Shown: positions 2-40,008, counted from the stretch's first letter. The stretch is 64,000 bases of DNA from an uncultured bacterium (GCA_963780225.1 CAWAAX010000006.1:18136-82135), one strand, 5' to 3'. Notes: generated by a model not told the origin, from the letters alone. Numbers and translations: made by a program.

Positions 2-2509
2 GGCGCAGGATCCAATCCCTATGCCGTGGCCGTAAACCCGGTGACCAACAAGATATATGTATCTAACGCAAGCAGCGGCAACGTGACTGTGATAGACGGG
101 GCTACAGATTCCACCACTACCACGGTTGCAGGAGCCAGTCCCCGGGCCGTGGCGGTGAACCCGGTGACCAACAAGATATATGTAGCCAACGCAAGCAGCG
201 ACAACCTGACTGTGATAGACGGGGCTACAAATTCCACCACTACCGTGACTGCAGGAGCCAGTCCCCAGGCCGTGGCGGTGAACCCGGTGACCAACAAGAT
301 ATATGGGGCCAATTGGAATAGCGCTAATGTAACGGTGATAGACGAAGCTCCGGTGTACGATACCGGAGTGCGGGTTGTGATAGACTCCCTGTCCGGCAAC
401 GTTACCTACCAGACCCAGCCCGTTTTGACCGGAAAAGGGGTTAACCGCTGGAGCCCAAGCAAAACCAACATGATGGGAGTGATCAACGATTTCCCGGACA
501 TCCACCATGCCTGGAACTGGTCAGCCGGGCCGTTCGACAGCACCTCTTCGGATTCCATCAGCTGGACGTACAACTGGGGAACGGATTCGTTGCGGTATGG
601 GGAAAATTACATCAATATCGTGCCGCTGGAGATGCAGGCGGGCACCACTAACAACCTGGGTCTGGGCACGCCCATGGTCGGCAACATGCTGACCTACCCG
701 GTCTATTATCTTGACAACGTGCCGCCGTCACAGGTTAACCTGATTTCTCCGGCCAATGATACTATGTCAGATGACGGTTCTTTTATTTTTGCCTGGAATA
801 GCGCCACCGATAATTATGGCATGGGTCTATATCATTTACAGGTTGCCGCCAATGACAGCTTTGCGCCATGTTATCTTGATACGTTGGTAAGCGACACTTT
901 TCTGGCGATTACACTGTCTCCAGCGGACACAATATATTACTGGCAGGTTCAAGCGGTGGACATTTGCGGCAAGGAAGGCTCATTCTCGTTAACTTGGCAG
1001 CTTGAGATCGATGTGTTAAGCCCGGCGACCCCGGCTCTGCTAACCCCGGCAGATAATTCCTGGCTGGCCTCGGATACGGCCTTCTGCATCTGGGGCGCCG
1101 TCAGTAAAACCGGCAAAGCCTCGGCAGTATATTATGTCTTAAAAGCTTATAATCTAGCAGATACTACTAATCCGGTGATCGTTGATACTACGGCTATGAC
1201 AACGGACACTTTATTGATCTCCGAAGGCCGATTCCGGTGGCAGGTAGAAGCCTATGATGAAGCCGGCAACCCTCCGGGCATCTCCGGGTTCTTCAATTTT
1301 GGATATGATACAACTTCACCGGCAGTGGCTTCTTTGTTGACCCCAGCAGACAGCTTGATAACCAATCAGAGCAATATTGGCTTTGCTTGGAATGTTTGTA
1401 CGGACAGCGTCAGCGGGCTGAAAGAATACACCCTGCAATATGCCTACGATCCGAGCTTCACTGCTGGCCTGGCCGAGATCACACTGACCGATACCAGCAT
1501 AACGCTGGTCATGGCCGATAGTAATTATTATTGGCGGGTTGTTGCCAGTGACACGGCTGGCAATATAAGTATGTCTATCGTCAGATATTTATCAATAGAT
1601 ACCTACGATCCCGCCATTCCGACCCTGCTTTCTCCGATTGATGATTACTGGACCACAGATACCACCGTGGTCTGCAGTTGGGGTGAGGTGGTCAAGATGA
1701 CCAAGGCGGCAGATGTTTTATATGTCATCCAACTGGATACATCAAATACCTTCGCATCCCCGCTGATCGAGGACACTACGGCCATTCTATCGGACGCGTT
1801 TAATCTCTCTGAAGGCCAATACTACTGGAGGGTGATGGCTTTTGACCTGGCCGGGAACTACGGGACATATTCGGACTACAGAACCTTTGGGATAGATACC
1901 ACGGCTCCGGACATCCAGTACGTCACAATCTTATCAGATGATCCCAGCGTACCATACGGGCCGTACGAAGTGGTCAGCAGTGTTTACGACCTGAGCGGGG
2001 TCAAGTCTGCTTGGATGTTCACTCAGATAAACGGTGAAAGCTGGGACAGCACGGCTATGTTCTTTGCATCAGACAGTTTGAGAGATAGCATCCCCGAACA
2101 AACGGTGGCCACCGATGAGACTTTGACCGTGAGCTATTATATCAAGGCCATTGATATGCTGGACCACCAGAGTATCAGCTCAACTTACAGTTTCAAGGCC
2201 ATCGGGCCGCTGGGGGTAACTGGGAATCCGGGCATATCGCTTCCGGCTGTTTACGCGTTGACCGGCGCCTATCCCAATCCGTCAAGAGGAAGCACAACCT
2301 TCAAATACCAACTGCCGGAAGAAACAAAGGTCAAATTAGAGATATACAACGTGGCCGGGCAGCTGATCAAAACATTTGACCAAGGGACCAAGCCAGCGGG
2401 GTATCACCAGATAAACTGGAACGACAGCAGGGCTGCGGCCGGTGTGTATTTCTATCGTCTGCGAGCCGGAAGCTTTATGGCTTCGGGCAAGCTGATTCTG
2501 CTGCGGTAA
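2..2509 (+). CDS. Large secreted surface protein (5'-partial): YVTN-type beta-propeller repeats, about five ~95-aa Ig/FN3-like repeats, C-terminal T9SS (Por_Secre_tail-like) sorting domain
   Basis: The frame is open from base 2. The N-terminus repeats 'AVAVNPVTNKIYVANASS..LTVIDGAT' (YVTN repeat). Repeated 'LLTPAD..YYW(Q/R)V.A.D' modules follow. The C-terminus 'YPNPSRGSTTFKYQLPEETKVKLEIYNVAGQLIKTF...AAGVYFYRLRAGSF..GKLILLR' matches the T9SS C-terminal sorting-domain pattern from memory. Confidence 0.6.
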   Translation, partial: GAGSNPYAVAVNPVTNKIYVSNASSGNVTVIDGATDSTTTTVAGASPRAVAVNPVTNKIYVANASSDNLTVIDGATNSTTTVTAGASPQAVAVNPVTNKIYGANWNSANVTVIDEAPVYDTGVRVVIDSLSGNVTYQTQPVLTGKGVNRWSPSKTNMMGVINDFPDIHHAWNWSAGPFDSTSSDSISWTYNWGTDSLRYGENYINIVPLEMQAGTTNNLGLGTPMVGNMLTYPVYYLDNVPPSQVNLISPANDTMSDDGSFIFAWNSATDNYGMGLYHLQVAANDSFAPCYLDTLVSDTFLAITLSPADTIYYWQVQAVDICGKEGSFSLTWQLEIDVLSPATPALLTPADNSWLASDTAFCIWGAVSKTGKASAVYYVLKAYNLADTTNPVIVDTTAMTTDTLLISEGRFRWQVEAYDEAGNPPGISGFFNFGYDTTSPAVASLLTPADSLITNQSNIGFAWNVCTDSVSGLKEYTLQYAYDPSFTAGLAEITLTDTSITLVMADSNYYWRVVASDTAGNISMSIVRYLSIDTYDPAIPTLLSPIDDYWTTDTTVVCSWGEVVKMTKAADVLYVIQLDTSNTFASPLIEDTTAILSDAFNLSEGQYYWRVMAFDLAGNYGTYSDYRTFGIDTTAPDIQYVTILSDDPSVPYGPYEVVSSVYDLSGVKSAWMFTQINGESWDSTAMFFASDSLRDSIPEQTVATDETLTVSYYIKAIDMLDHQSISSTYSFKAIGPLGVTGNPGISLPAVYALTGAYPNPSRGSTTFKYQLPEETKVKLEIYNVAGQLIKTFDQGTKPAGYHQINWNDSRAAAGVYFYRLRAGSFMASGKLILLR
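21..330 (+). repeat. Near-identical ~120-bp tandem DNA repeats (about 2.6 copies) encoding the YVTN repeats
   Basis: Units start near 21, 141 and 261 and differ at only a few positions, e.g. ccgtggcggtgaacccggtgaccaacaagatatatgt... Confidence 0.7.
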
Positions 2510-2593
2510 TGCTTTTGCAGCCTTTGGTGCGATAGGAAGGAGGATCCCCTTCAGGATAGTTCTATCTTCGTGTATCCGGGATATCCATTTTTA

Positions 2594-2646
2594 AAAGGCG
2601 TTTTGATGACCCTAAAAAAGGGTCATCAGGGCGCCTTTATCTTTTT
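2594..2646 (+). terminator. Compound hairpin plus T-run downstream of the surface-protein gene
   Basis: aaaaggcg-ttt-tgatgaccc-taaaaaa-gggtcatca-gggcgccttt, followed by tatcttttt. Confidence 0.45.
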
Positions 2647-2732
2647 GCCTGCCCTGTCCCAAAAACAACCATAAATATGGGTTTTATTTGATTGCAAAAC
2701 TCAATCCGCTGTGATAAAATTAACTTTTTAGT

Positions 2733-4964
2733 ATGCATAACTCCAACTTACATAAAATATTGCCTCTGGTACAGAGGCCGGGACGTTACACCGATAACGA
2801 ACTGAATTCCGTCCATAAAAACTGGGACCAGGCACAGGTAAAGATAGCTCTGGCCTATCCCGACCTTTACGAGATCGGGATGTCCGGCTTGGGGCTGGCC
2901 ATCCTTTATTCAGTGGTCAACCGGCTGCCGCAGGCATTGGCCGACCGCAGTTACCTGCCCTGGCCGGACATGGAAGAGGCCATGCGCAAGCAGGGTATCC
3001 CTCTGTTCGGATGGGAGACCCGGCGCGAGCTTAGGGAATTCGACGTCCTGGGCATCACCCTGCAGACCGAGCTGTGCTATGCCGGGGTGCTGAACCTGCT
3101 GGACCTGTCCGGCCTGCCGCTGTATGCTGATCAGCGAAAAGAGGAGCATCCCCTGGTGATCGGGGGCGGCTCCTGCTGCGCCAACCCGGCGCCGCTGTCA
3201 AAATTCTTTGATGCCTTCGTGATCGGAGACGGAGAGGAGGCCATCGTGGAGATCTGCGGGCAGCTGCAGGAAGCCAAAGCGAAAATCGAAAGCAGAAGGC
3301 AGAAAATCGAACGGTTGTCCCGGATCCCGGGTATCTATGTCCCCATGATCCATGATGGAACAAAAACCAAGATCCGGGCCAGGCATATCGCCTCACTGGA
3401 CATCAAAGACGCCGCCCACCCGCCGCTGGTGCCGCTGGTGGAGGTGACCCACGACCGGCTGACGGTGGAGATCGCCCGGGGCTGCACCCGGGGCTGCCGT
3501 TTCTGCCAGGCCGGGATGGTCTACCGCCCCCGGCTGGTAAGGTCCGAAGACGAGGTGGTGAAGCTGGCCAGGGAGGGCATCGCCAAAAGCGGCTGGGACG
3601 AGGTCTCGCTGCTCTCGCTTTCCTCCGGGGATTACCCGGATCTCCTGGGGCTGTTGCAGAAACTTAACGGTTGTTTTTCCAATTCCAAAGTGGCCATCTC
3701 CCTGCCGTCATTGCGGCTGGATTCCTTTGACGGGGAGATGATAGAGGCCCTGAAAAAGGTGAAGAAGACCGGACTGACCTTTGCCCCCGAGGCCGGCAGC
3801 CAGCGTCTGAGGGATGTGATCAACAAGGGGATCAGCAAAGAAGAATTATTGCGGGTGATAGCCCTGGCCAAAAAAGAGGGCTGGATGCAGGTCAAGCTGT
3901 ATTTCATGATCGGTTTGCCCACCGAGACCGAAGAGGACCTCAAGGAGTTGTGCGACCTCTGCCACCAGGCGTCAAAACTGGGGGTCAACCTTAAAGTGGC
4001 GGTCTCGCCCTTCGTGCCCAAGGCCCAGACCCCGTTCCAGTGGGAGGCCCAGGACAGCTGGGAGACGCTGTACCAGAAGATAGACCTTTTGTCCCGGGGC
4101 CTCAAGTCCCACAAGGTCCAGATGAAATGGCACGACCTGCGATCCTCCAAGCTGGAGGGACTGCTGGCCCGGGGCGGCAGCGAAACGGCGGCCCTGATAG
4201 AAAAGGCCTGGCAGAAGGGGGCCAAGCTGGACCAGTGGAGCGAGCATTTTGTCTGGGGGCGCTGGGAAGAGGCGATGCAGGAACTGGGCCTCGATCTGAA
4301 TAATTTGTGCCGGGCCAGGACCGACGAGGAAACATTGCCCTGGGATAACATTGATTACGGGGTCTCCAAGAAATTCCTGCTGCAGGAAAAGCAGAAAGCC
4401 TACCAGGAGCAGATCACTTCTGACTGCCGGGAGCAGGGATGCCACGGCTGCGGGGCGGACTGCGGGACGCAGGGAACAGGGATCAGGGATCAGATGTCAG
4501 GGGACAGGGGACAGGAGGCAGGGGACAGCTTAAAGCATAAAGCTGTCAGCTTACAGCTTGTTGATGGTTTCGGGCGCAGCGCCAAGAAGATGGCCGGGCC
4601 GGCCCCGCTGGCCAGGACCAAGTTCCGCCTGCGCTATGCCAAGGGGCCCGAGCTTCGCTTCATCTCGCACCTGGACCTGATGCGGGCCTGGCTGAGGGCC
4701 GTCAGCCGGGCGGAGCTGCCGGTGGCCTTCTCCCAGGGCTTTTCCCCGCATCCCAAAATAGCCTTTGGCCCGCCGCTGGCCCTGGGGCTGACCACCAGCG
4801 CCGATTACATGGACATCCAGCTGGACCGGCCGCTTTCTGAGGACATCGGACTGCTGATCAACCCCCATTTGCCGCCGGGGTTGAATGTGCTGGAGTCCAA
4901 GCCAATCTTCGGCAACGCAAAGTCAATCACCGAGCTGTGCGACGCCGCTGAATACCGGGTCTAA
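2733..4964 (+). CDS. B12-binding-domain radical SAM protein (TIGR03960-like) fused to a radical-SAM-associated DUF2344 (TIGR03936-like) domain; ends at an in-frame TAA
   Basis: The CxxxCxxC motif 'CTRGCRFC' sits within 'VEIARGCTRGCRFCQAGMVY'. The C-terminal part 'RFRLRYAKGPELRFISHLDLMRAWLRAVSRAELPVAFSQGFSPHPKIAFGPPLALG' is DUF2344-like. Confidence 0.7.
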   Translation: MHNSNLHKILPLVQRPGRYTDNELNSVHKNWDQAQVKIALAYPDLYEIGMSGLGLAILYSVVNRLPQALADRSYLPWPDMEEAMRKQGIPLFGWETRRELREFDVLGITLQTELCYAGVLNLLDLSGLPLYADQRKEEHPLVIGGGSCCANPAPLSKFFDAFVIGDGEEAIVEICGQLQEAKAKIESRRQKIERLSRIPGIYVPMIHDGTKTKIRARHIASLDIKDAAHPPLVPLVEVTHDRLTVEIARGCTRGCRFCQAGMVYRPRLVRSEDEVVKLAREGIAKSGWDEVSLLSLSSGDYPDLLGLLQKLNGCFSNSKVAISLPSLRLDSFDGEMIEALKKVKKTGLTFAPEAGSQRLRDVINKGISKEELLRVIALAKKEGWMQVKLYFMIGLPTETEEDLKELCDLCHQASKLGVNLKVAVSPFVPKAQTPFQWEAQDSWETLYQKIDLLSRGLKSHKVQMKWHDLRSSKLEGLLARGGSETAALIEKAWQKGAKLDQWSEHFVWGRWEEAMQELGLDLNNLCRARTDEETLPWDNIDYGVSKKFLLQEKQKAYQEQITSDCREQGCHGCGADCGTQGTGIRDQMSGDRGQEAGDSLKHKAVSLQLVDGFGRSAKKMAGPAPLARTKFRLRYAKGPELRFISHLDLMRAWLRAVSRAELPVAFSQGFSPHPKIAFGPPLALGLTTSADYMDIQLDRPLSEDIGLLINPHLPPGLNVLESKPIFGNAKSITELCDAAEYRV

Positions 4965-33453: not shown

Positions 33454-34079
33454 GCAAAGTCCTAAAACTGGCGTTGGTGCTGGGTTTGGCCTTTAGCACT
33501 TCAGCCAGCGCCCAAAACTGCGACTCGCTGTTGTTCCAAGTACGTGCGAAATACCAGAAGATCAACGACCTCAAGGCCCATGTGGTGCAGACGGTCTGCA
33601 GCGCGGCCACAGGAACCTGCAGCCGGTACGAGGGAGAACTGGAGCTTAAGCGGCCCAACAAATTGCGAATGGACATCGCCAAACCGGACAAACAGCAGAT
33701 CATCTGCGACGGCAATACCATCTGGCTTTATTTAGTCAATGACAAACAGGTGATGAAATCCGGCCTTAAAAGTTCGCCCCAATTTTTAGTCTGGCTCAAT
33801 CCCTTAGACAAACTGTTGGCGGGCCGGGCCAAGGATGGCTGCCGAAACAATGGCGATTATTTGTTTTTCATGGAATCGGAAGAGCTGAAGGACATCATCA
33901 AAGCCTTAAAAATAGTGGTGGACCGGAAAACCCTTTTGATAATCGGGATTGAAGCGGTCGATGTCAACGGCAACAGTGCCGAATACAGTTTCAGCAAGAT
34001 CAAGGTCAATCCCGGGTTGAAAGATGCCCGTTTTAATTTCATAATCCCAAAAAATGTGGAGATAATTGAAAACCAATGA
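33450..34079 (+). CDS. LolA-like outer-membrane lipoprotein carrier
   Basis: It has a signal peptide 'LALVLGLAFSTSASAQ' and 'LKRPNKLRMD' LolA-like motifs. The ftsK-lolA order is conserved in many bacteria. Confidence 0.6.
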   Translation: MSKVLKLALVLGLAFSTSASAQNCDSLLFQVRAKYQKINDLKAHVVQTVCSAATGTCSRYEGELELKRPNKLRMDIAKPDKQQIICDGNTIWLYLVNDKQVMKSGLKSSPQFLVWLNPLDKLLAGRAKDGCRNNGDYLFFMESEELKDIIKALKIVVDRKTLLIIGIEAVDVNGNSAEYSFSKIKVNPGLKDARFNFIIPKNVEIIENQ

Positions 34080-34570
34080 GCCAGAGTTCATTCGACATAG
34101 TTTCCAAGATCGATCTTCAGGAAATGAAGAATGCGGTCCAGATGGCCCAGAAGGAGATCATCGGGCGCTTTGATTTCAAGGGCACCAACTGCCAGATAGA
34201 GATCATGGAAGACAAGTTGGTGATCCTGGCCTCGGACGAGTTCAAGCGCAAAAGCATGCTGGACATCATATTCAACAAGGTGGTCAAGCGCGGGATCTCC
34301 ATCAAATCGCTGGAGCAGAAGGAACCCCAGCCGGCCGCCAAGAATTACCTGCGCCAGGAACTGGTGTTCGTGCAGGGGATCCCCATGGACAAGGCCAAGG
34401 AGATGGTCAAACGCATCAAGGCCTCGGGGATCAAGGTCCAGGCCCAGATCCAGGACCTGCAGGTGCGGGTCACCGGCAAGGACAAGGACGACCTGCAGCA
34501 GGTGATCGCGTTGTTCCGGCAGGATGATCTGGGGCTGGCATTGCAGTTCACGAATTATAGGTCTACTTGA
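34076..34570 (+). CDS. yajQ: YajQ family (UPF0234) nucleotide/c-di-GMP-binding protein
   Basis: 'SFDIVSKIDLQEMKNAVQMAQKEIIGRFDFKG' is the YajQ signature. Confidence 0.85.
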   Translation: MSQSSFDIVSKIDLQEMKNAVQMAQKEIIGRFDFKGTNCQIEIMEDKLVILASDEFKRKSMLDIIFNKVVKRGISIKSLEQKEPQPAAKNYLRQELVFVQGIPMDKAKEMVKRIKASGIKVQAQIQDLQVRVTGKDKDDLQQVIALFRQDDLGLALQFTNYRST

Positions 34571-34870
34571 CCGCCCCCTAATCCCCCTCCGTTGCGGAGG
34601 GGGAGATAACCATCCCTCTCCACCCTTCGGCTCTGCTCAGGGCAGGCAATGGAGAGGGGTAGGCGATGCACTGAGAAAGACTGCCTTGATACACTTATGA
34701 AGTGGGAGAGGTCCCACCCGCCGGAAGGCGGGTTTTTTGTTTGACCGCCCCCTCATTCCCCACTTTCGTTTGTCAAAGTGTTCTGCCTTTCTCAGTGCAG
34801 GCTCTCCTGGCAGGAGGGGGAGGCTTGTTTTCCCTCCCCTACCAGGGGAGGGGCAGGGGAGAGGTCCAAA
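34567..34870. repeat. Cluster of GC-rich mosaic palindromic repeat modules (GACCGCCCCCT..CCCC, CTCCGTTGCGGAGGGGGAG, ATCCCTCTCCAC..GGAGAGGG, ACTTTCG..CTCAGTGCAGGC)
   Basis: The same modules recur in both orientations at 36594-36838 and 37224-37374. Confidence 0.7.
34717..34741 (+). terminator. Rho-independent terminator after yajQ
   Basis: cccgcc-ggaa-ggcggg followed by ttttttgtttg. Confidence 0.6.
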
Positions 34871-34929
34871 ATATTCCTTGATTTTGTCCCCCTTTGGTTG
34901 TATTCTTATACTAAATGTAACCATTATTT

Positions 34930-36570
34930 ATGGAGCTTTTTATGGACAACAGGCTTTACTATGGCGACAATCTTGACATTTTACAGCGGCACATAGCCGA
35001 TGAAAGCGTGGACCTTGTTTATCTTGACCCGCCGTTCAACAGCAATGCCAATTACAACGTGCTGTTTAAGGAGAAGGACGGCAGCCAGGCGGCTTCGCAG
35101 ATAAGGGCTTTTGAAGACACCTGGTCCTGGGACCAGGAAGATGAGAGCGTTTTTGCCGAAATGGTTACCAAGGGCGGCAAGGTGGCCGATTGTTTGCAGG
35201 CCTTTAGAACGTTCATGGGGCCATGCGACATGCTGGCTTATTTGGTGATGATGGCTCCGAGGTTAGTGGAGTTGAAAAGGGTGATGAAAAACACGGCCAG
35301 CATTTATCTGCATTGCGACCCCAGCGCTTCGCACTATTTGAAGATGCTGATGGATGCCGTGTTCGGGCCTGCCTATTTTAGGACAGAAATTATCTGGAAA
35401 CGAAGCAGCGCCCATAGCGACGCAAAACAAGGCAGAGCACAACATGGCAGAATACATGATGTGATACTGTTTTATACAAAAACGGATGATTGGTTTTGGA
35501 ATCATATGTTCACTTCATATGATGAGACATACACGGATACTTTCTATAAATATGTTGAACCAGGGACTGGTAGACGATACAGGCTTGACAATTTGACTGG
35601 GCCAGGCGGAGCTGCAAAGGGTAATCCGTCCTATGAAGTTATGGGCATCACTCGGTTTTGGCGGTATAGCAAAGAGAAAATGGATGAATTGATAAAGCAG
35701 GGCCGAATAATTCAAACGAAACCAGGTAATGTACCAGCCTATAAACGATATCTTGACGAAATGCCAGGTGTTACCCTACAAGATGTTTGGACTGATATTG
35801 GGCCTATAAGTTCACAAGCAACGGAAAGACTTGGTTACCCTACACAAAAACCCGAGGTGCTTCTTGAAAGAATAATTAATAGTTCTTGCCCGGAAGGTGG
35901 CCTTGTCCTTGATCCCTTCTGCGGGTGCGGCACCACCATTGCGGCGGCGCAGAAGTTAAACCGCAGTTGGATAGGCATAGACATAACCCACATGGCCATA
36001 ACCCTGATGAAGAAACGCCTGCTGGACACCTTTGGCGGAGAAGCAAAGTTCAAGGTTTTGGGTGAGCCGACCAGCCTGCCGGATGCGGCGGCTTTGGCCG
36101 AGAGCGACCAGTACCAGTTCCAGTGGTGGGCCTTGGGCCTGGTGGACGCCCGCCCGGTGGAGCAGAAGAAAGGCGCCGACAAGGGCATTGACGGCAAGAT
36201 AGTGTTTCAGGGCGATGCGCCGGGGGTGTTCGAGAACGTGGTGATCTCGGTAAAGGCCGGGCATTTGAACGCCAACCATATTAGGGACCTGCGGGGCGTG
36301 GTGGACCGGGAGAAGTCGGCCATTGGGGCGCTGATAGCAATGGAGGAGTTTACCAAGCCCATGCAGACCGAGGCGGCCACGGCGGGGTTTTATGAATCTG
36401 CCACCTGGGGCAAGAAATATCCCAAGATACAACTGCTGACCATTGAGGAACTGCTAAACGGCAGGAAGATAGAGATGCCGCCGATCAAGCAGGTGGAGGC
36501 GACCTTCAAGAAGGCCGAGAAGGTGAAGGGGGGCAAGGGCAAGCAGATGAAGATGGAAGAAAAAGTTTAG
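34930..36570 (+). CDS. Beta-class N6-adenine/N4-cytosine DNA methyltransferase fused to a C-terminal Mrr-like PD-(D/E)XK (restriction-endonuclease-like) domain
   Basis: Motif IV 'LDPPF' near the N-terminus and motif I 'FCGCGTT' about 300 aa later give the beta-class order. The C-terminal ~130 aa 'KGADKGIDGKIVF...VISVKAGH...IRDLRGVVDREKSAIGALIAMEEFTKPMQTEAATAGFY...KIQLLTIEELLNG' follow the Mrr_cat pattern (D-G-I-D-G ... x-x-K ... FT..A ... I.L...EEL). Confidence 0.7.
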   Translation: MELFMDNRLYYGDNLDILQRHIADESVDLVYLDPPFNSNANYNVLFKEKDGSQAASQIRAFEDTWSWDQEDESVFAEMVTKGGKVADCLQAFRTFMGPCDMLAYLVMMAPRLVELKRVMKNTASIYLHCDPSASHYLKMLMDAVFGPAYFRTEIIWKRSSAHSDAKQGRAQHGRIHDVILFYTKTDDWFWNHMFTSYDETYTDTFYKYVEPGTGRRYRLDNLTGPGGAAKGNPSYEVMGITRFWRYSKEKMDELIKQGRIIQTKPGNVPAYKRYLDEMPGVTLQDVWTDIGPISSQATERLGYPTQKPEVLLERIINSSCPEGGLVLDPFCGCGTTIAAAQKLNRSWIGIDITHMAITLMKKRLLDTFGGEAKFKVLGEPTSLPDAAALAESDQYQFQWWALGLVDARPVEQKKGADKGIDGKIVFQGDAPGVFENVVISVKAGHLNANHIRDLRGVVDREKSAIGALIAMEEFTKPMQTEAATAGFYESATWGKKYPKIQLLTIEELLNGRKIEMPPIKQVEATFKKAEKVKGGKGKQMKMEEKV

Positions 36571-36593
36571 GGGTTTGGTTAGAATTCCGCCCC

Positions 36594-36838
36594 AAGCTTC
36601 GGACCGCCCCCCTGCCCCCTCCGTTGCGGAGGGGGAGGGGAGTGTCCCTCTCCACATTGGAGAGGGACAAAGGGAGAGGTCAAAAGCTTCGGACCGCCCC
36701 CTCGTTCCCCCTCCGTAGCGGAGGGGGAATAGGTTGTGTGAATAGTTATGTGTTGATATGTTTGATGATGTAAATAAAACTGATGACGAAATCCCTCTCC
36801 ACAATGGAGAGGGGGAGGGGAGAGGTCGAACCAGGCCA
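36594..36838. repeat. GC-rich mosaic palindromic repeat modules between the MTase gene and the DUF559 gene
   Basis: aagcttcggaccgcccccctgccccctccgttgcggagggggag... occurs twice, and atccctctccacaatggagaggg extends into the 5' end of the DUF559 ORF. Confidence 0.7.
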
Positions 36839-37219
36839 GCCCACCCCAAGGGCAGCACCGGGATTATCAGGCTGCAAAAAGTGAAAAGCAGCAAATTAGA
36901 GTTGGCCAAATATTTCAGACAGCATATGACACTTGGCGAAAGGTGCTTCTGGAATATGACCCGCAAGAACCAGGTCAACGGTTACCGATTCAGACGCCAG
37001 CAGGTGATCCACGGCTTTGTTGCCGATTTCTACTGCAACCAGATAAACCTGGTGGTCGAGATAGACGGCGGCATCCACGAACAGCAGAAGGACTACGACA
37101 AGCTTCGCACAAAAATAATTAACCAGTACGGCATCCGGGTCATACGTTTTACCAACGAAGAAATGATGGATAAAAGCGATTGGGTGTTGGAGAAGTTGAA
37201 GGAAGCTGCGAGAAGTTGA
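36758..37219 (+). CDS. DUF559 (Vsr-like endonuclease-fold) protein; the 5' boundary is uncertain because the ORF's first ~25 codons are repeat sequence
   Basis: 'KLELAKYFRQHMTLGERCFWNMTR...GYRFRRQQVIHGFVADFYCNQINLVVEIDGGIHEQQKDYDKLRTKIINQYGIRVIRFTNEEM' is the DUF559 pattern. Confidence 0.7.
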   Translation: MFDDVNKTDDEIPLHNGEGEGRGRTRPAHPKGSTGIIRLQKVKSSKLELAKYFRQHMTLGERCFWNMTRKNQVNGYRFRRQQVIHGFVADFYCNQINLVVEIDGGIHEQQKDYDKLRTKIINQYGIRVIRFTNEEMMDKSDWVLEKLKEAARS

Positions 37220-37223
37220 TTGC

Positions 37224-37374
37224 CTAAAGCTTCGGACCGCCCCCTCGTTCCCCACTTTCGCTTGTCGTAGTGTTCTGCCTTGCTCAGTGCAGGCACTCCG
37301 TTGCGGAGGGGGAGGACAGACATCCCTCTCCACATTGGAGAGGGATAAAGGGAGAGGTCGAACCCCGCAGGACG
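37224..37374. repeat. GC-rich mosaic palindromic repeat modules downstream of the DUF559 gene
   Basis: ctaaagcttcggaccgccccctcgttccccactttcgcttgtcgtagtgttctgccttgctcagtgcaggcactccgttgcggagggggag...catccctctccacattggagagggataaagggagaggtcgaacc. Confidence 0.7.
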
Positions 37375-37482
37375 GCCCACCAACCCCCTTGCATTTTCAC
37401 CCATCATTTGCGATAATAACGCAAGCCATAATAGACGCCTTTGGCGTCTATTATGCTTTAACATTAAACCACGGAGAAGGTC

Positions 37483-37692
37483 ATGAAGAACAGCACGTTA
37501 CTCTACTGGGCCGGAGTGGTGATCTCATGTCTCAGCGCCTTTTTATTCATATTCAAGGTGCTGCCTCTGACTATAACAGACAAACCGTTGTTGATGTCCA
37601 CCACTTGCATAATCTGCATGCTGGGGGCAATACTCTGCCTGGTGGCGGCTATCTATGAACAGAACAAGGAAAAAACCGGGGGAAAAGAGTGA
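37483..37692 (+). CDS. Small two-TM membrane protein (hypothetical)
   Basis: A GGAGAAGG RBS precedes the start, and there are two hydrophobic helices. Confidence 0.35.
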   Translation: MKNSTLLYWAGVVISCLSAFLFIFKVLPLTITDKPLLMSTTCIICMLGAILCLVAAIYEQNKEKTGGKE

Positions 37693-37877
37693 AGCCCTTT
37701 GTATTCGTTTTTGTTTTGGCCGTTGCGTTAAGCCTGTCCTGCTCCCAAAAGACCGAGCATACCCAGGAAGACATCGGGCCGGTCAAGACCTACAAAACGT
37801 TGAAGGAGCGCACCGATACCATCCAGACCAAGGCCCAGCAGCATTCCAACACGCTGGATTCCATCGCCGCGGACTAA
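37689..37877 (+). CDS. Small lipoprotein (hypothetical)
   Basis: It has a signal peptide with the lipobox 'LSLSC' and overlaps the upstream small ORF by 4 bp. Confidence 0.35.
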   Translation: MKPFVFVFVLAVALSLSCSQKTEHTQEDIGPVKTYKTLKERTDTIQTKAQQHSNTLDSIAAD

Positions 37878-38300
37878 GCACCAAAACCTAAATCCTAAAC
37901 CCTAAACAAATTCCAAATCATAAGCCATAAACCCAAAACAGTTCGTTGTTTTGAGTTTGGCGAATTTATATTTGTTTAGAATTTAGATACTTGCTTCCAT
38001 CGCCGGGCAGTAGGGGCGAAGCACTAAATCCGAAATCCGAAATCCTAAACAATCCCAAATTATCAAAACCTAAAACTCAAAACTGTTTCGTACTTTGTAT
38101 TTAAACAATTAGAATTTGTTTTGAGTTTAGATACTTACTTCTATCGCAGGGCAGCAGGGGCGAAGCCCTAAATCCGAGATACGAAATCCTAAACAATCCC
38201 AAATGACCAAAACCTAAAACTCAAAACGGTTTCGTGCTTTGTATTTAATAATTAGAATTTGTTTTGAATTTAGATATTAGTATTTAGAGATTTAACCAGT
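37878..38300. repeat. Three tandem copies of a ~145-bp highly structured AT-rich repeat immediately upstream of mutL
   Basis: Units start near 37878, 38021 and 38166. Each contains the inverted repeat aaaacctaaaactcaaaac / gttttgagtttag, (g/t)aaatcc microrepeats, and a G-rich tail ctatcgcagggcagcaggggcgaag. Confidence 0.75.
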
Positions 38301-38301
38301 T

Positions 38302-40008
38302 ATGCCGATCATCGTCCTTTCCCCCGAGATAGTCAACAAGATAGCCGCCGGCGAGGTGGTGGAGCGCCCGGCCTCGGCCGCCAAGGAGCTGATGGAGAAC
38401 AGCCTTGATGCCGGGGCCCGTAGCATCGAGGTCGAGGTGAAAGCCGGAGGCCTTGAACTGCTGCGCGTCTCCGATGACGGCTCCGGCATGACCGGCGATG
38501 AGATGGAGCTGGCCCTGCAGCGCCACGCCACCAGCAAGATCAGCAGCTACGAAGACCTGCAGGATATCCACAGTTTCGGCTTTAGGGGCGAGGCCCTGCC
38601 CAGCATCGCCTCGGTCTCCCAGTTCACCATGGTCTCCCGTCCGGCCGGTTCGGACAGCGCCTGGCAGCTGGAATGCCGCGGGGGTGAAATAACATCCCGG
38701 AAACAGCAGGCCGCCCAGCCGGGCACAACCATCACGGTGGAGGAACTGTTCGCCAGCGTTCCCGCCCGCCGCAAATTCTTAAAGAGCCAGGCCACCGAAT
38801 CCCGCAAGATCGCAGAACTGTTTTTGTCTTTAGCCCTAGCCAATCCCGGAACCGGCTTCAAGCTTATCAGCGAAGGCCGGGTAACATACGATCTTAAATC
38901 CACCACCCAAGACGACCGGATCAGGGAAGTGCTGGGCGGAGAGCTTTACCGCACTTTGCTGAAGATAGACTACGGTCAAAAGCCTTTGCGGATATCCGGA
39001 TATCTCTCCGGGCCCCAAAACCTGTGGCCCAAGCGCCGGGAGCAGTACCTCTTCGTCAACGGCCGGCTGGTGTCCGACCGGCTGGCCTCGGCCGCCATCT
39101 ATCAGGGATTCGGTCCGGCCCTGGCCGGCAAGCATCCCAGTTACGTGCTTTTCCTGGAAATATCCCCGTCCCTGGTGGATGTCAATGTCCATCCCTCCAA
39201 GGTGCAGGTGCGCTTCAGCGACGAGTCTTTCGTCTTCCGCACCGTGCGGGCGGCGGTGGAGAAGGCCCTGTTCACCGACCAGCAGCGGCCGGAGACGGCG
39301 GGGGGTCTCAACACTCAAAACACAGGCTACCAGCCCTGGACCGGGCCGGAGCGGCCAGGCCAGCTGCAGATACAGGAAGCCATGGCCCTGTTTGCCTCCG
39401 GAAATCCGGAGCAGGCCGGTCTTAAGAATCTGGTGTCCATCCAGCCGGTGGTGGCCTACTGGCAGCTGCACCAGCGCTACATTCTGGCCGCCATCCGCGA
39501 CGGCCTGGTGATGATTGATCAGCACGCGGCCCACGAGCGGATACTATACGAGGAACTGCTGGCCGCCCGGGACCACAAGCGGGCCCAGCAGCTTTTGTTC
39601 CCGGTGACGGTGGAACTCTCTTCCCGGGAGATGCAGATATACCAGCAGTACCGCGAGGTCTTCGGCTCGCTGGGCTTTGATGTCAAGCAATTCAGCGGAC
39701 AGACCCTGGTGATGGAAGGCCTGCCGGTCTCCTGGGAGCAGAGCGGCGACGGGGCGGCCCTGGTGCGCGGTATTCTGGCCGACCTGGCGGATACTTCTGA
39801 CGTGAACCTGGAGCCGGCCCAGAGACTGGCCCGGTCATTCGCCTGCCGGGCCGCCGTAAAGGCCGGAAAGGCGCTGAACCAGGAAGAGATGAATCATCTG
39901 GTGGACCGGCTGTTTGCCACCAGCTCGCCCTATCTTGACCCCCATGGCCGCCCGTCGGTGATAAAATTCACACTGGAAGACCTGGAACACCGGTTCGGCC
40001 GGATATGA
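38302..40008 (+). CDS. mutL: DNA mismatch repair protein MutL
   Basis: 'IAAGEVVERPASAAKELMENSLDAG' is the GHKL ATPase N-terminus, with a MutL C-terminal dimerisation region. Confidence 0.95.
   Translation: MPIIVLSPEIVNKIAAGEVVERPASAAKELMENSLDAGARSIEVEVKAGGLELLRVSDDGSGMTGDEMELALQRHATSKISSYEDLQDIHSFGFRGEALPSIASVSQFTMVSRPAGSDSAWQLECRGGEITSRKQQAAQPGTTITVEELFASVPARRKFLKSQATESRKIAELFLSLALANPGTGFKLISEGRVTYDLKSTTQDDRIREVLGGELYRTLLKIDYGQKPLRISGYLSGPQNLWPKRREQYLFVNGRLVSDRLASAAIYQGFGPALAGKHPSYVLFLEISPSLVDVNVHPSKVQVRFSDESFVFRTVRAAVEKALFTDQQRPETAGGLNTQNTGYQPWTGPERPGQLQIQEAMALFASGNPEQAGLKNLVSIQPVVAYWQLHQRYILAAIRDGLVMIDQHAAHERILYEELLAARDHKRAQQLLFPVTVELSSREMQIYQQYREVFGSLGFDVKQFSGQTLVMEGLPVSWEQSGDGAALVRGILADLADTSDVNLEPAQRLARSFACRAAVKAGKALNQEEMNHLVDRLFATSSPYLDPHGRPSVIKFTLEDLEHRFGRI

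Follow-up and report, generated by a model that had tools for sequence, protein, structure and literature searches.

The interval between yajQ and mutL in a 64-kb stretch of DNA from an uncultured bacterium (CAWAAX010000006.1, 18136-82135; the whole stretch of 64,000 nucleotides (nt) that was analyzed is called the window here) raises the question of how a methylase-Mrr gene and a DUF559 gene came to lie there amid GC-rich palindromes, in a segment of ~2.8 kb (34569-37359). We found that this segment is an insertion at a strain-variable spot, that its palindromes match a known class of intrastrand-triplex repeats, and that such repeats and DUF559 genes are associated with one another across phyla. 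A preliminary description of the window had placed the two genes between yajQ and a pair of tiny open reading frames (ORFs) and had noted GC-rich palindromic modules bracketing each of them. Pfam confirmed the gene calls, and the bracketing modules resolved into five units with hairpins far above expectation. The general layout of a unit is (AAGCTTCG)GACCGCCCCC, hairpin B CCCCCTCCGTTGCGGAGGGGG, hairpin C CCCTCTCCACATTGGAGAGGG and the right (R) end GGGAGAGGTC(GAAC). The left flank, the units and the two genes are given below, with the left end of a unit abbreviated as L end.

34076-34570, + strand: yajQ (DUF520; Pfam E 4e-57), the left flank of the insertion
34569-34713, + strand: unit 1a, with L end GACCGCCCCCT, hairpin B, a hairpin C whose loop holds a 27-nt insert, an inverted sub-module X (34660-34700) and R end GGGAGAGGTC
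34743-34866, + strand: unit 1b, with L end, a forward sub-module X, a CCCTCCCCT/AGGGGAGGG hairpin and GGGGAGAGGTC
34930/34942-36570, + strand: beta-class N6/N4 DNA methylase with a C-terminal Mrr-like domain (N6_N4_Mtase E 5e-40; Mrr_cat/NA-iREase1)
36594/36602-36681, + strand: unit 2a, the minimal unit (fold z-score -6.0)
36683/36692-36827, + strand: unit 2b, as 2a plus a 56-nt AT-rich insert (36735-36790) that holds ATG 36758
36758/36881-37219, + strand: DUF559 nuclease gene (Pfam E 8e-32), with its core beginning near 36830 and GTG 36881 as alternative start
37226/37235-37359, + strand: unit 3, which joins the first half of 1b to the second half of 2a as a chimera (matches of 95% and 100%)

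The state of the site in relatives was read from contigs encoding close MutL homologues (comparison loci carry L numbers). The site was empty in L198, L199 (TA06 JACQXR01) and L201-L205, whose MutL proteins are 95%, 89% and 87% identical to that of the window, respectively; in these relatives yajQ was followed by 80-115 nt, the tiny ORFs and mutL, with no methylase, no DUF559 and no repeat unit in between. The empty-site relatives end yajQ with TAG, while both filled genomes (the window and L206) end it with a TGA derived from unit 1a, the first bases of which complete the stop codon at 34568-34570 in the window. UBA5202 (L084; mutL 91% identical at the nucleotide level) had one repeat unit before the tiny ORFs and, upstream of it, other genes that include a C5 methylase and a type II restriction enzyme (PADLOC E 3e-59). 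A more distant relative (L206/L207), 72% identical to the window over ftsK-yajQ, carried the island with its place and order unchanged at 76-84% nucleotide identity, as against 72% for the flanking core genes. No transposase, Y1 or integrase gene was present within +/-10 kb of the island, a region syntenic with the annotated L198. The segment 34569-37359 is an insertion at a strain-variable yajQ-mutL spot. The preliminary description had proposed comparing the synteny of this interval among related genomes and had raised the possibility of an integration hotspot for defence genes; the comparison revealed variable rather than identical content, and the hotspot idea gained support from a site that is empty, holds other restriction-modification cargo or holds the same island in relatives.

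Several observations on the same region stand apart from this comparison. Misassembly at the repeats was considered and rejected, as four independent assemblies of the L206 lineage in Logan show the island in one and the same order, a single contig of 212,602 bp is on record for both island proteins and the junction of unit 3 with the tiny ORFs is common to L084. An independent assembly with an identical YajQ (L001, 1802 nt) ends 112 nt past the gene, inside the repeat cluster, indicating that the units break short-read or metagenome assemblies. The TA06 relative has an extra N6_N4 methylase and a 260-amino-acid (aa) gene between rplJ and ftsK (L199:3477-5266), absent from the window and from L198, which is a second variable spot nearby. 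A second copy of lolA lies between lolA and yajQ in two relatives (L198:8063-8695 and L201:8092-8724) and is lacking in the window.

The five composite units are 80-145 nt long, all on the + strand and all intergenic, and fall into clusters at 34569-34866, 36594-36827 and 37226-37359. Over the 64-kb window hairpin B was matched 5 times against 0.00 expected and hairpin C 6 times against 0.01 expected, which excluded chance. When folded as single strands with ViennaRNA, the units were predicted to form a pair of hairpins within a closing GGACC/GGTC stem, at z-scores of -1.9 to -6.0 (-3.1 for unit 1a); the terminal repeats TTCGGACCGCCCCC / GGGAGAGGTCGAA close a stem. The preliminary description had the modules occurring in both orientations. 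This was true only of sub-module X, a piece of ~40 nt containing GCACTGAGAAAG that is forward in units 1b and 3 and inverted in unit 1a, while all five composite units share one orientation. The inverted X pairs at 34667-34679 with 34787-34799 (100% complementary) and also with 37279-37291. The mosaic make-up described earlier was borne out by the chimeric unit 3 and the optional inserts, and units 1b and 3 are 78% identical. Unit 1a is found at the identical place in L206. Unit 2b and the DUF559 gene form one block, which aligns to L038 over 36688-37149 and is also present in L206.

The right half of unit 2a, CCCTCTCCA-CAT-TGGAGAGGG-ACAAA-GGGAGAGGT, forms a mirror repeat without mismatches, which makes it an intrastrand-triplex motif, and the left half of the window units is a weaker copy of that motif on the opposite strand. 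A generalized pattern of the motif was matched in the 64 kb solely at 34832, 36646, 36793 and 37324, always on the + strand. Elements of the BoxC/PIT type were reportedly described by Bachellier and coworkers in the 1990s and by Hoyne and Maher in 2000 and 2002. The three segments CCCTCTCCA / TGGAGAGGG / GGGAGAGGT form a perfect 9-nt mirror in units 2a, 2b and 3. The TMECO motif CCCTCNCCC-N3-6-GGGNGAGGG-N3-GGGNGAGGG is the BoxC/PIT intrastrand-triplex motif (Holder et al. 2015, PMC4666352). Judged by sequence, the window units belong to the BoxC/PIT/TMECO class, an assignment that we count as established. The same study reported 3610 TMECO copies in 262 proteobacterial genomes and high numbers in cyanobacteria, a stable triplex in vitro with none detectable in vivo, and rearrangements significantly more common around TMECO loci (PMC4666352). 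The genes flanking TMECOs had no consensus function and no transposase or integrase remnants, and the origin and mechanism of the elements were left unanswered; earlier work, as cited there, had attributed neither promoter nor terminator activity to the repeats (PMC4666352). The repeat class and its tie to variable loci are thus already known.

What these repeats neighbor in other genomes was determined in both directions. When one genome per species was scanned for the exact pattern of hairpin C, at least 116 stretches were returned, with ~1 expected by our own estimate. The matches listed, to which the counts that follow refer, span more than 10 phyla or lineages (Chloroflexota, Myxococcota, Bacteroidota, Spirochaetota and Leptospirales, Planctomycetota, Acidobacteriota, Gemmatimonadota, SAR324, Edwardsbacteria/UBP2 and others), and their flanks share the architecture (T)GACCTCACCCC ... 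hairpin ... GGGGTGAGGTC. The DUF559 profile matched 8 of the 116 listed repeat-seeded loci (778 kb), in all 8 cases less than 400 nt from the hairpin and nowhere else. Neighboring families were defined by all-vs-all clustering and methylases by hidden Markov model, with motif scans in addition; among ORFs within 250 nt of the hairpin, DUF559 was the only family to recur across phyla. The search for further module copies that the preliminary description had called for thus led, outside the window, to DUF559 as a gene that they flank.

For the reverse test we took 80 metagenomic DUF559 loci of 37-77% identity and a strict 9-nt terminal motif. The motif was found within 300 nt upstream in 50 of 78 loci and downstream in 40 of 75, relative to a background of 0.024 per 300 nt at distances greater than 600 nt. 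Since the query held repeat-derived residues, the count was repeated on loci whose match starts at residue 30 or later, and in this unbiased subset the motif was present upstream in 19/26 and downstream in 19/28. Perfect GC-rich hairpins likewise numbered 1.05 per 300 nt near a DUF559 gene versus 0.045 far away. The arrangement also occurs in five cultured isolates, namely Picosynechococcus PCC 7002 (pAQ6), Deinococcus sp. NW-56, Azospirillum lipoferum 4B, N. gonorrhoeae (NGO0050, the protein of structure 3HRL) and E. coli K-12, where the downstream neighbor of ycjD is TMECO #9 (Table 1, PMC4666352). The DUF559-repeat association holds in both directions, and we count it as established.

Within E. 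coli, ycjD was present in 3378 of 5426 complete genomes, and 659 genomes had neither ycjD nor a TMECO match. In a spread sample of the species, ycjD-positive genomes had about 2-13 extra matching places (median about 8) and ycjD-negative genomes 1-7 (median about 4.5). In published counts, A/B1 strains have 19-30 TMECOs, B2 strains 0-2 and O157:H7 11. Although suggestive, the trend is confounded by phylogroup, and it was therefore not counted as evidence. Two further features of the ycjD locus were noted: a ~55-nt duplicate of the 3' coding end of ycjD lies between ycjD and TMECO #9 in E. coli K-12 (L221:2800-2870), and B2 strain 536 has a TetR/RND operon at the ycjD position.

The modules that join repeat and gene were seen in two forms. 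In the nested form (L009, L126-L130, L149, L151 and Deinococcus) the order is L end and hairpin, ORF, hairpin and R end; in the flanked form (L134, L138, L148, L173-L176 and L179) a complete unit stands on either side of the ORF, the two units being 87-97% identical. The window island has the flanked form, and we regard this geometry as established. In one Bacteroidales genome (CAMIWN01; L009) a DUF559 element lies beside at least 25 ORF-less copies having its left part. In the window, L009, L129, L154 and L164 the upstream gene takes its stop codon from the L end. The R end, rich in G, precedes the DUF559 start by 2-19 nt, and in L211 and L009 it also immediately precedes the start of the next host gene; such modules could, we infer, be carried within operons at little cost. 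At least 7 loci (L123, L124, L130, L161, L164/L152 and L170, with a decayed copy in L213) have host sequence of 30-64 nt directly duplicated on either side of the insert. Without exception, what is duplicated there is one end, 5' or 3', of the adjacent gene, and the other duplications at inserts are whole units of 80-245 nt. The first ~10 codons of hsdR are duplicated at the DUF559 module in L130 and L170.

To our knowledge the DUF559 family, which is very large and counts E. coli YcjD among its members, has a solved structure but no known function. The window protein matched the DUF559 profile (PF04480) with 109.7 bits, relative to a cut-off of 20.6, while its match to NCBIfam PRK09767 fell below the cut-off of that model and Vsr (PF03852) was absent from its Pfam matches. 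Residues D90, E101, D103 and H107 are invariant or nearly so in the family. By sequence the protein matched PDB 3HRL with E 4e-19, and its AlphaFold2 model (predicted local distance difference test score 84) retrieved with Foldseek 3HRL (E 2e-7), the homing endonuclease I-Bth0305I (3R3P; E 3.9e-4) and Vsr (1VSR; E 0.36). Compared with the catalytic domain of 3R3P, the model gave a probability of 1.00 and a template modeling (TM) score of 0.63-0.71. The ratio of nonsynonymous to synonymous substitution was 0.16 relative to L206, indicating purifying selection. The 17 codons upstream of GTG 36881 were also constrained (0.19), which suggests that translation probably starts in or before unit 2b. 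Many homologues have an N-terminal extension such as TAPISPSDAEGE..IPLHxGEGEGRG and, at the C terminus, a tail such as PSPHWRG or PLHTGEGRGEV; both come from translation of repeat units and are spurious extensions on annotated proteins. In L062:1071-1436 and L088:2704-2860 a repeat unit truncates or interrupts the DUF559 gene, and the junction ...GGGAGAGGTCAAC| runs in frame into the remaining coding sequence.

As an explanation of the whole we lean, without great confidence, toward an insertion built on triplex repeats, with DUF559 as their partner nuclease and a homing-like spread. The island would have been acquired horizontally and assembled from cassettes separated by BoxC/PIT/TMECO-type palindromes, the natural partner of which would be the DUF559 gene and not the methylase. 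The DUF559 protein, a nuclease of the Vsr/I-Bth0305I fold, may nick or cut at or near the units, and repair might then copy the module in a homing-like manner, driving gain, loss and exchange of neighboring DNA. ORF-less units would be non-autonomous derivatives, analogous to the REPIN-RAYT system, and the methylase-Mrr cassette would have been captured between units as cargo. The action of the nuclease on the units and the mode of spread are proposed here from sequence, the structural model and analogy. A bolder form of the idea, which we offer tentatively and hold to be somewhat doubtful, is that DUF559 proteins including YcjD and NGO0050 are the missing enzymatic partner of BoxC/PIT/TMECO elements in general: a structure- or sequence-specific nickase that maintains and spreads the units and its own gene in a homing-like way begun by a nick and leaves the 30-64-nt duplications, resembling the REPIN-RAYT symbiosis, but with another enzyme and a non-B DNA structure at its base, in more than 10 phyla and creating hotspots for restriction-modification and defence genes.

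Several observations weigh against this explanation. The window contains no repeat unit anywhere outside the island, and DUF559 was missing from the vicinity of 108 of the 116 listed repeat-seeded loci. Of 18 TMECO loci in E. coli only one is next to ycjD, and the ycjD-negative O157:H7 keeps its 11 TMECOs. The long, variable duplications match no known transposase, and modules at the same place in related genomes (L126/128/129 and a rumen trxB group) look vertically stable. The higher identity of the island relative to the core genes of L206 could stem from slow evolution of the methylase. The upstream motif statistic was partly biased by the repeat-derived query residues, a bias answered by the unbiased subset and the downstream side. 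No cleavage or mobility has been observed, and it is from comparison that we infer the enzymology.

The main rival is a passive hotspot, in which fragile non-B units provoke breaks and illegitimate recombination, so that DUF559, restriction-modification genes and other small transferable genes accumulate and survive there, DUF559 having no enzymatic tie to the repeats. We consider this possible but rather unlikely. The published finding that TMECO loci are more variable, with no mobility genes found (PMC4666352), agrees with it, as do the three different contents at a single site and the many units that lack DUF559. A neutral hotspot should, however, gather many families, and DUF559 was the sole recurrent neighbor across phyla; the stereotyped geometry, with units abutting both ends of the ORF, L-R nesting and flanking units 87-97% identical, also speaks against a passive origin.

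The preliminary description had suggested that the pairing of DUF559 with the adjacent methylase may be functional, on the model of Vsr and Dcm in very-short-patch repair. On this reading the DUF559 protein would be a Vsr-like partner of the methylase in repair or restriction, and the repeats would be incidental. The methylase-Mrr protein (542/546 aa; the exact 542-aa match is P0241) scored E 1e-60 with PADLOC MTase_II and belongs to a very large family, 70-95% identical across phyla. Its least conserved part, aa 181-260 (35480-35720; GC 0.43), is by comparison the variable target-recognition region; it could not be aligned to the otherwise 76-84% identical L206, suggesting a swapped target-recognition domain. 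In the Mrr-like domain (36170-36420) the family keeps GIDG...SVK, with Ser where Mrr has Gln/Glu, and its best Pfam match was the 'inactive' NA-iREase1, ahead of Mrr_cat; the fused nuclease-fold domain may thus be non-catalytic. No separate restriction endonuclease gene was found within the island. The same gene pair in the same order in a second lineage (L206/L207) is what a functional pair would predict, and a single frame in L183:535-2901 encodes an N6_N4 methylase followed by DUF559 at the position of the Mrr-like domain. DUF559 modules also lie directly upstream of type I hsdR in L132, L141, L170 and L130, with hsdS on the other side in three loci including L170, a DUF559 gene adjoins an MmeI-like methylase and a PLD nuclease in L215, and PADLOC gave weak matches to a methyl-directed restriction endonuclease model. 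This affinity of DUF559 for restriction-modification loci is real but loose, and may merely reflect shared variable spots.

As a general rule the pairing found no support, and we regard it as improbable. An N6_N4 methylase was found in only 1 of the 80 DUF559 loci, namely the L183 fusion, and many DUF559 genes sit in housekeeping operons (L211, L213 and L009; in Edwardsbacteria between mlaD and radA and in a methylmalonyl-CoA mutase cluster). A 95%-identical methylase-Mrr gene occurs in L210 in another context, without DUF559, beside matching repeat units and a promoter-like stretch. Pfam assigned the window protein to DUF559 and not to Vsr, and its model fitted Vsr poorly (E 0.36) and I-Bth0305I better. 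Since the neighbor is an amino-methylase, the rationale of T:G repair after deamination of 5-methylcytosine does not apply. The L210 locus has a tight operon of three genes (297-4234), for the methylase-Mrr protein, a 238-aa tetratricopeptide repeat-like protein and a 528-aa protein without known family, which may be an undescribed system.

It is still less probable that the units are transposable elements of a miniature, inverted-repeat kind (MITEs) or repetitive extragenic palindromes (REPs) mobilized in trans by a transposase elsewhere, from an insertion sequence (IS) or of the RAYT type, with DUF559 as a passenger. The small size of the units, their terminal inverted repeats GGACC...GGTCC, the many copies in some genomes and mosaics like those of bacterial interspersed mosaic elements fit such elements. 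Against this, neither a transposase nor a Y1 gene lies in the +/-10 kb around the island that are syntenic with the annotated L198, the GTAG/CGTC tags that mark RAYT-type REPs are missing from the units, remnants of transposases or integrases were not found near TMECOs (PMC4666352), and DUF559 is the sole ORF nested between L and R ends. An integron-like cassette array, with the units as attC-type sites and the genes as cassettes moved by an integron integrase, is hardly credible and was rejected for want of core sites and an integrase. Same-orientation imperfect palindromes of 80-145 nt do separate the genes, a unit-DUF559-unit order with duplicated units resembles cassette insertion and a GGGGTTAGGTC / GACCTAACCCC variant elsewhere happens to contain GTTRRRY / RYYYAAC. 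The essential GTT/AAC triplets are, however, missing from the unit ends of the window (GAGAGGTC / GACCGCC) and from the common TGAGG variant, the +/-10 kb around the island have no integrase, other genomes have the units scattered one by one, and the methylase has its own promoter-like site.

The remaining features of the island and of its right flank are as follows.

34716-34743, + strand: intrinsic-terminator-like hairpin CCCGCCGGAAGGCGGG with a T run, between units 1a and 1b, kept in L206 and absent at empty sites
34884-34912, + strand: promoter-like TTGTCC-17-TATACT, by consensus match alone
37360-37395, + strand: stretch GAACCCCGCAGGACGGCCCACCAACCCCC after the R end of unit 3, common to L084
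37427-37455, + strand: native hairpin ATAATAGACGCC..GGCGTCTATTAT, present at every empty site
37483-37877, + strand: two small conserved ORFs (69 + 62 aa) without known family, the right flank, syntenic in L198, L199, L201-L205 and L084
38302-40008: mutL, the gene after the tiny ORFs, with miaA next

By its distribution the terminator-like hairpin belongs to the island and not to the native site. The stretch 34856-34908, which holds the promoter-like site, is 87% identical to positions 219-269 of L210, where it also lies beside a repeat unit, and travels with the methylase cassette. By inspection, without statistics, 37360-37395 weakly resembles the leader after unit 2b (36828-36862) and may be a remnant of the 5' end of another cassette; the hairpin at 37427-37455, found at every empty site, marks where the ancestral intergenic sequence resumes. 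A duplication of the 3' end of yajQ at the right edge of the island was not significant (p 0.25), so that the right boundary cannot be fixed to the base. An Rfam scan of 34000-38400 gave nothing but sub-threshold microRNA-like noise. Two tandem repeats were also noted, an AT-rich 144-nt repeat at 37970-38276 (2.1 copies, 90% match) directly upstream of the mutL start at 38302, and a 123-nt repeat at the window edge (5-312; 2.5 copies, 89% match) that looks like a coding beta-propeller-type repeat.

Compared with known systems, the window units share with BoxC/PIT/TMECO elements a CCCTCNCC stem, a short loop, a GGNGAGGG stem, another short loop and a mirror G-rich stem, as well as a frequent arrangement in inverted pairs ("inverted tandem" in E. 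coli), a location between genes at strain-variable loci and no transposase nearby. They differ in that the third segment is GGGAGAGG and not GGGTGAGGG, A replacing T, that loop 2 is 3-5 nt versus the strict published 3 nt with GGGNGAGGG, and that GGACCGCCCCC/GGTC ends, a further hairpin and, optionally, inserts lengthen the unit. The host belongs to Edwardsbacteria/TA06 rather than to the Proteobacteria or Cyanobacteria, and DUF559 emerges as a recurrent partner, whereas the published work saw no associated gene class. The island itself is a further example of a variable restriction-modification islet at a triplex-repeat locus, from a candidate phylum. Integron cassettes and their attC sites (PMC4889954) are likewise structured palindromes of similar size and uniform orientation between genes of variable, defence-type content, but the window has neither the core sites RYYYAAC / GTTRRRY nor an integrase, and the repeats are dispersed rather than arrayed. 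The units resemble MITEs in being short and ORF-less, with terminal inverted repeats and ends common to an ORF-carrying DUF559 element (L009, L126-L130 and Deinococcus), but no short target-site duplications were identified and the parent ORF encodes a PD-(D/E)xK nuclease, not a DDE transposase.

On the protein side, DUF559 shares a fold superfamily with Vsr (clan grouping, PMC3424549), and a methylase gene lies next door in the window as with Dcm; the Pfam family is a different one, however, the neighbor is an amino-methylase and not a C5 enzyme, the match to 1VSR is weak and methylases do not generally co-occur. The Vsr-like (EDxHD) homing endonuclease I-Bth0305I (PMC2677866, PMC3239194) is the best functionally characterized structural match, with a similar acidic/His motif (E-x-D-G-G-x-H) and a similarly selfish presence/absence behavior. 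The DUF559 protein differs from it in being free-standing, at ~115 aa, without an extra DNA-binding domain, and its gene lies in no intron or intein and is flanked by repeats rather than by a split host gene. BoxC/PIT/TMECO elements have been catalogued since the 1990s and tied to genome instability, and their association with DUF559 suggests a protein partner for them; we found no DUF559-repeat link in the literature searched. The link across phyla gives both the family and the repeats a testable hypothesis, and suggests how small defence or restriction-modification cassettes swap at fixed chromosomal spots without integrases. As in the REP/REPIN-RAYT systems (PMC3337134, PMC3733652), many short palindromic copies coexist with few copies of one gene that they flank; the partner here is a PD-(D/E)xK nuclease of Vsr fold instead of a Y1 transposase of the IS200/IS605 type, and the units end in GGACC/GGTC without a GTAG/CGTC tag and have triplex-type mirror repeats and long duplications. 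The DUF559-repeat partnership is what is new here, a variant of the theme of a repeat with its dedicated enzyme that REPIN-RAYT represents.

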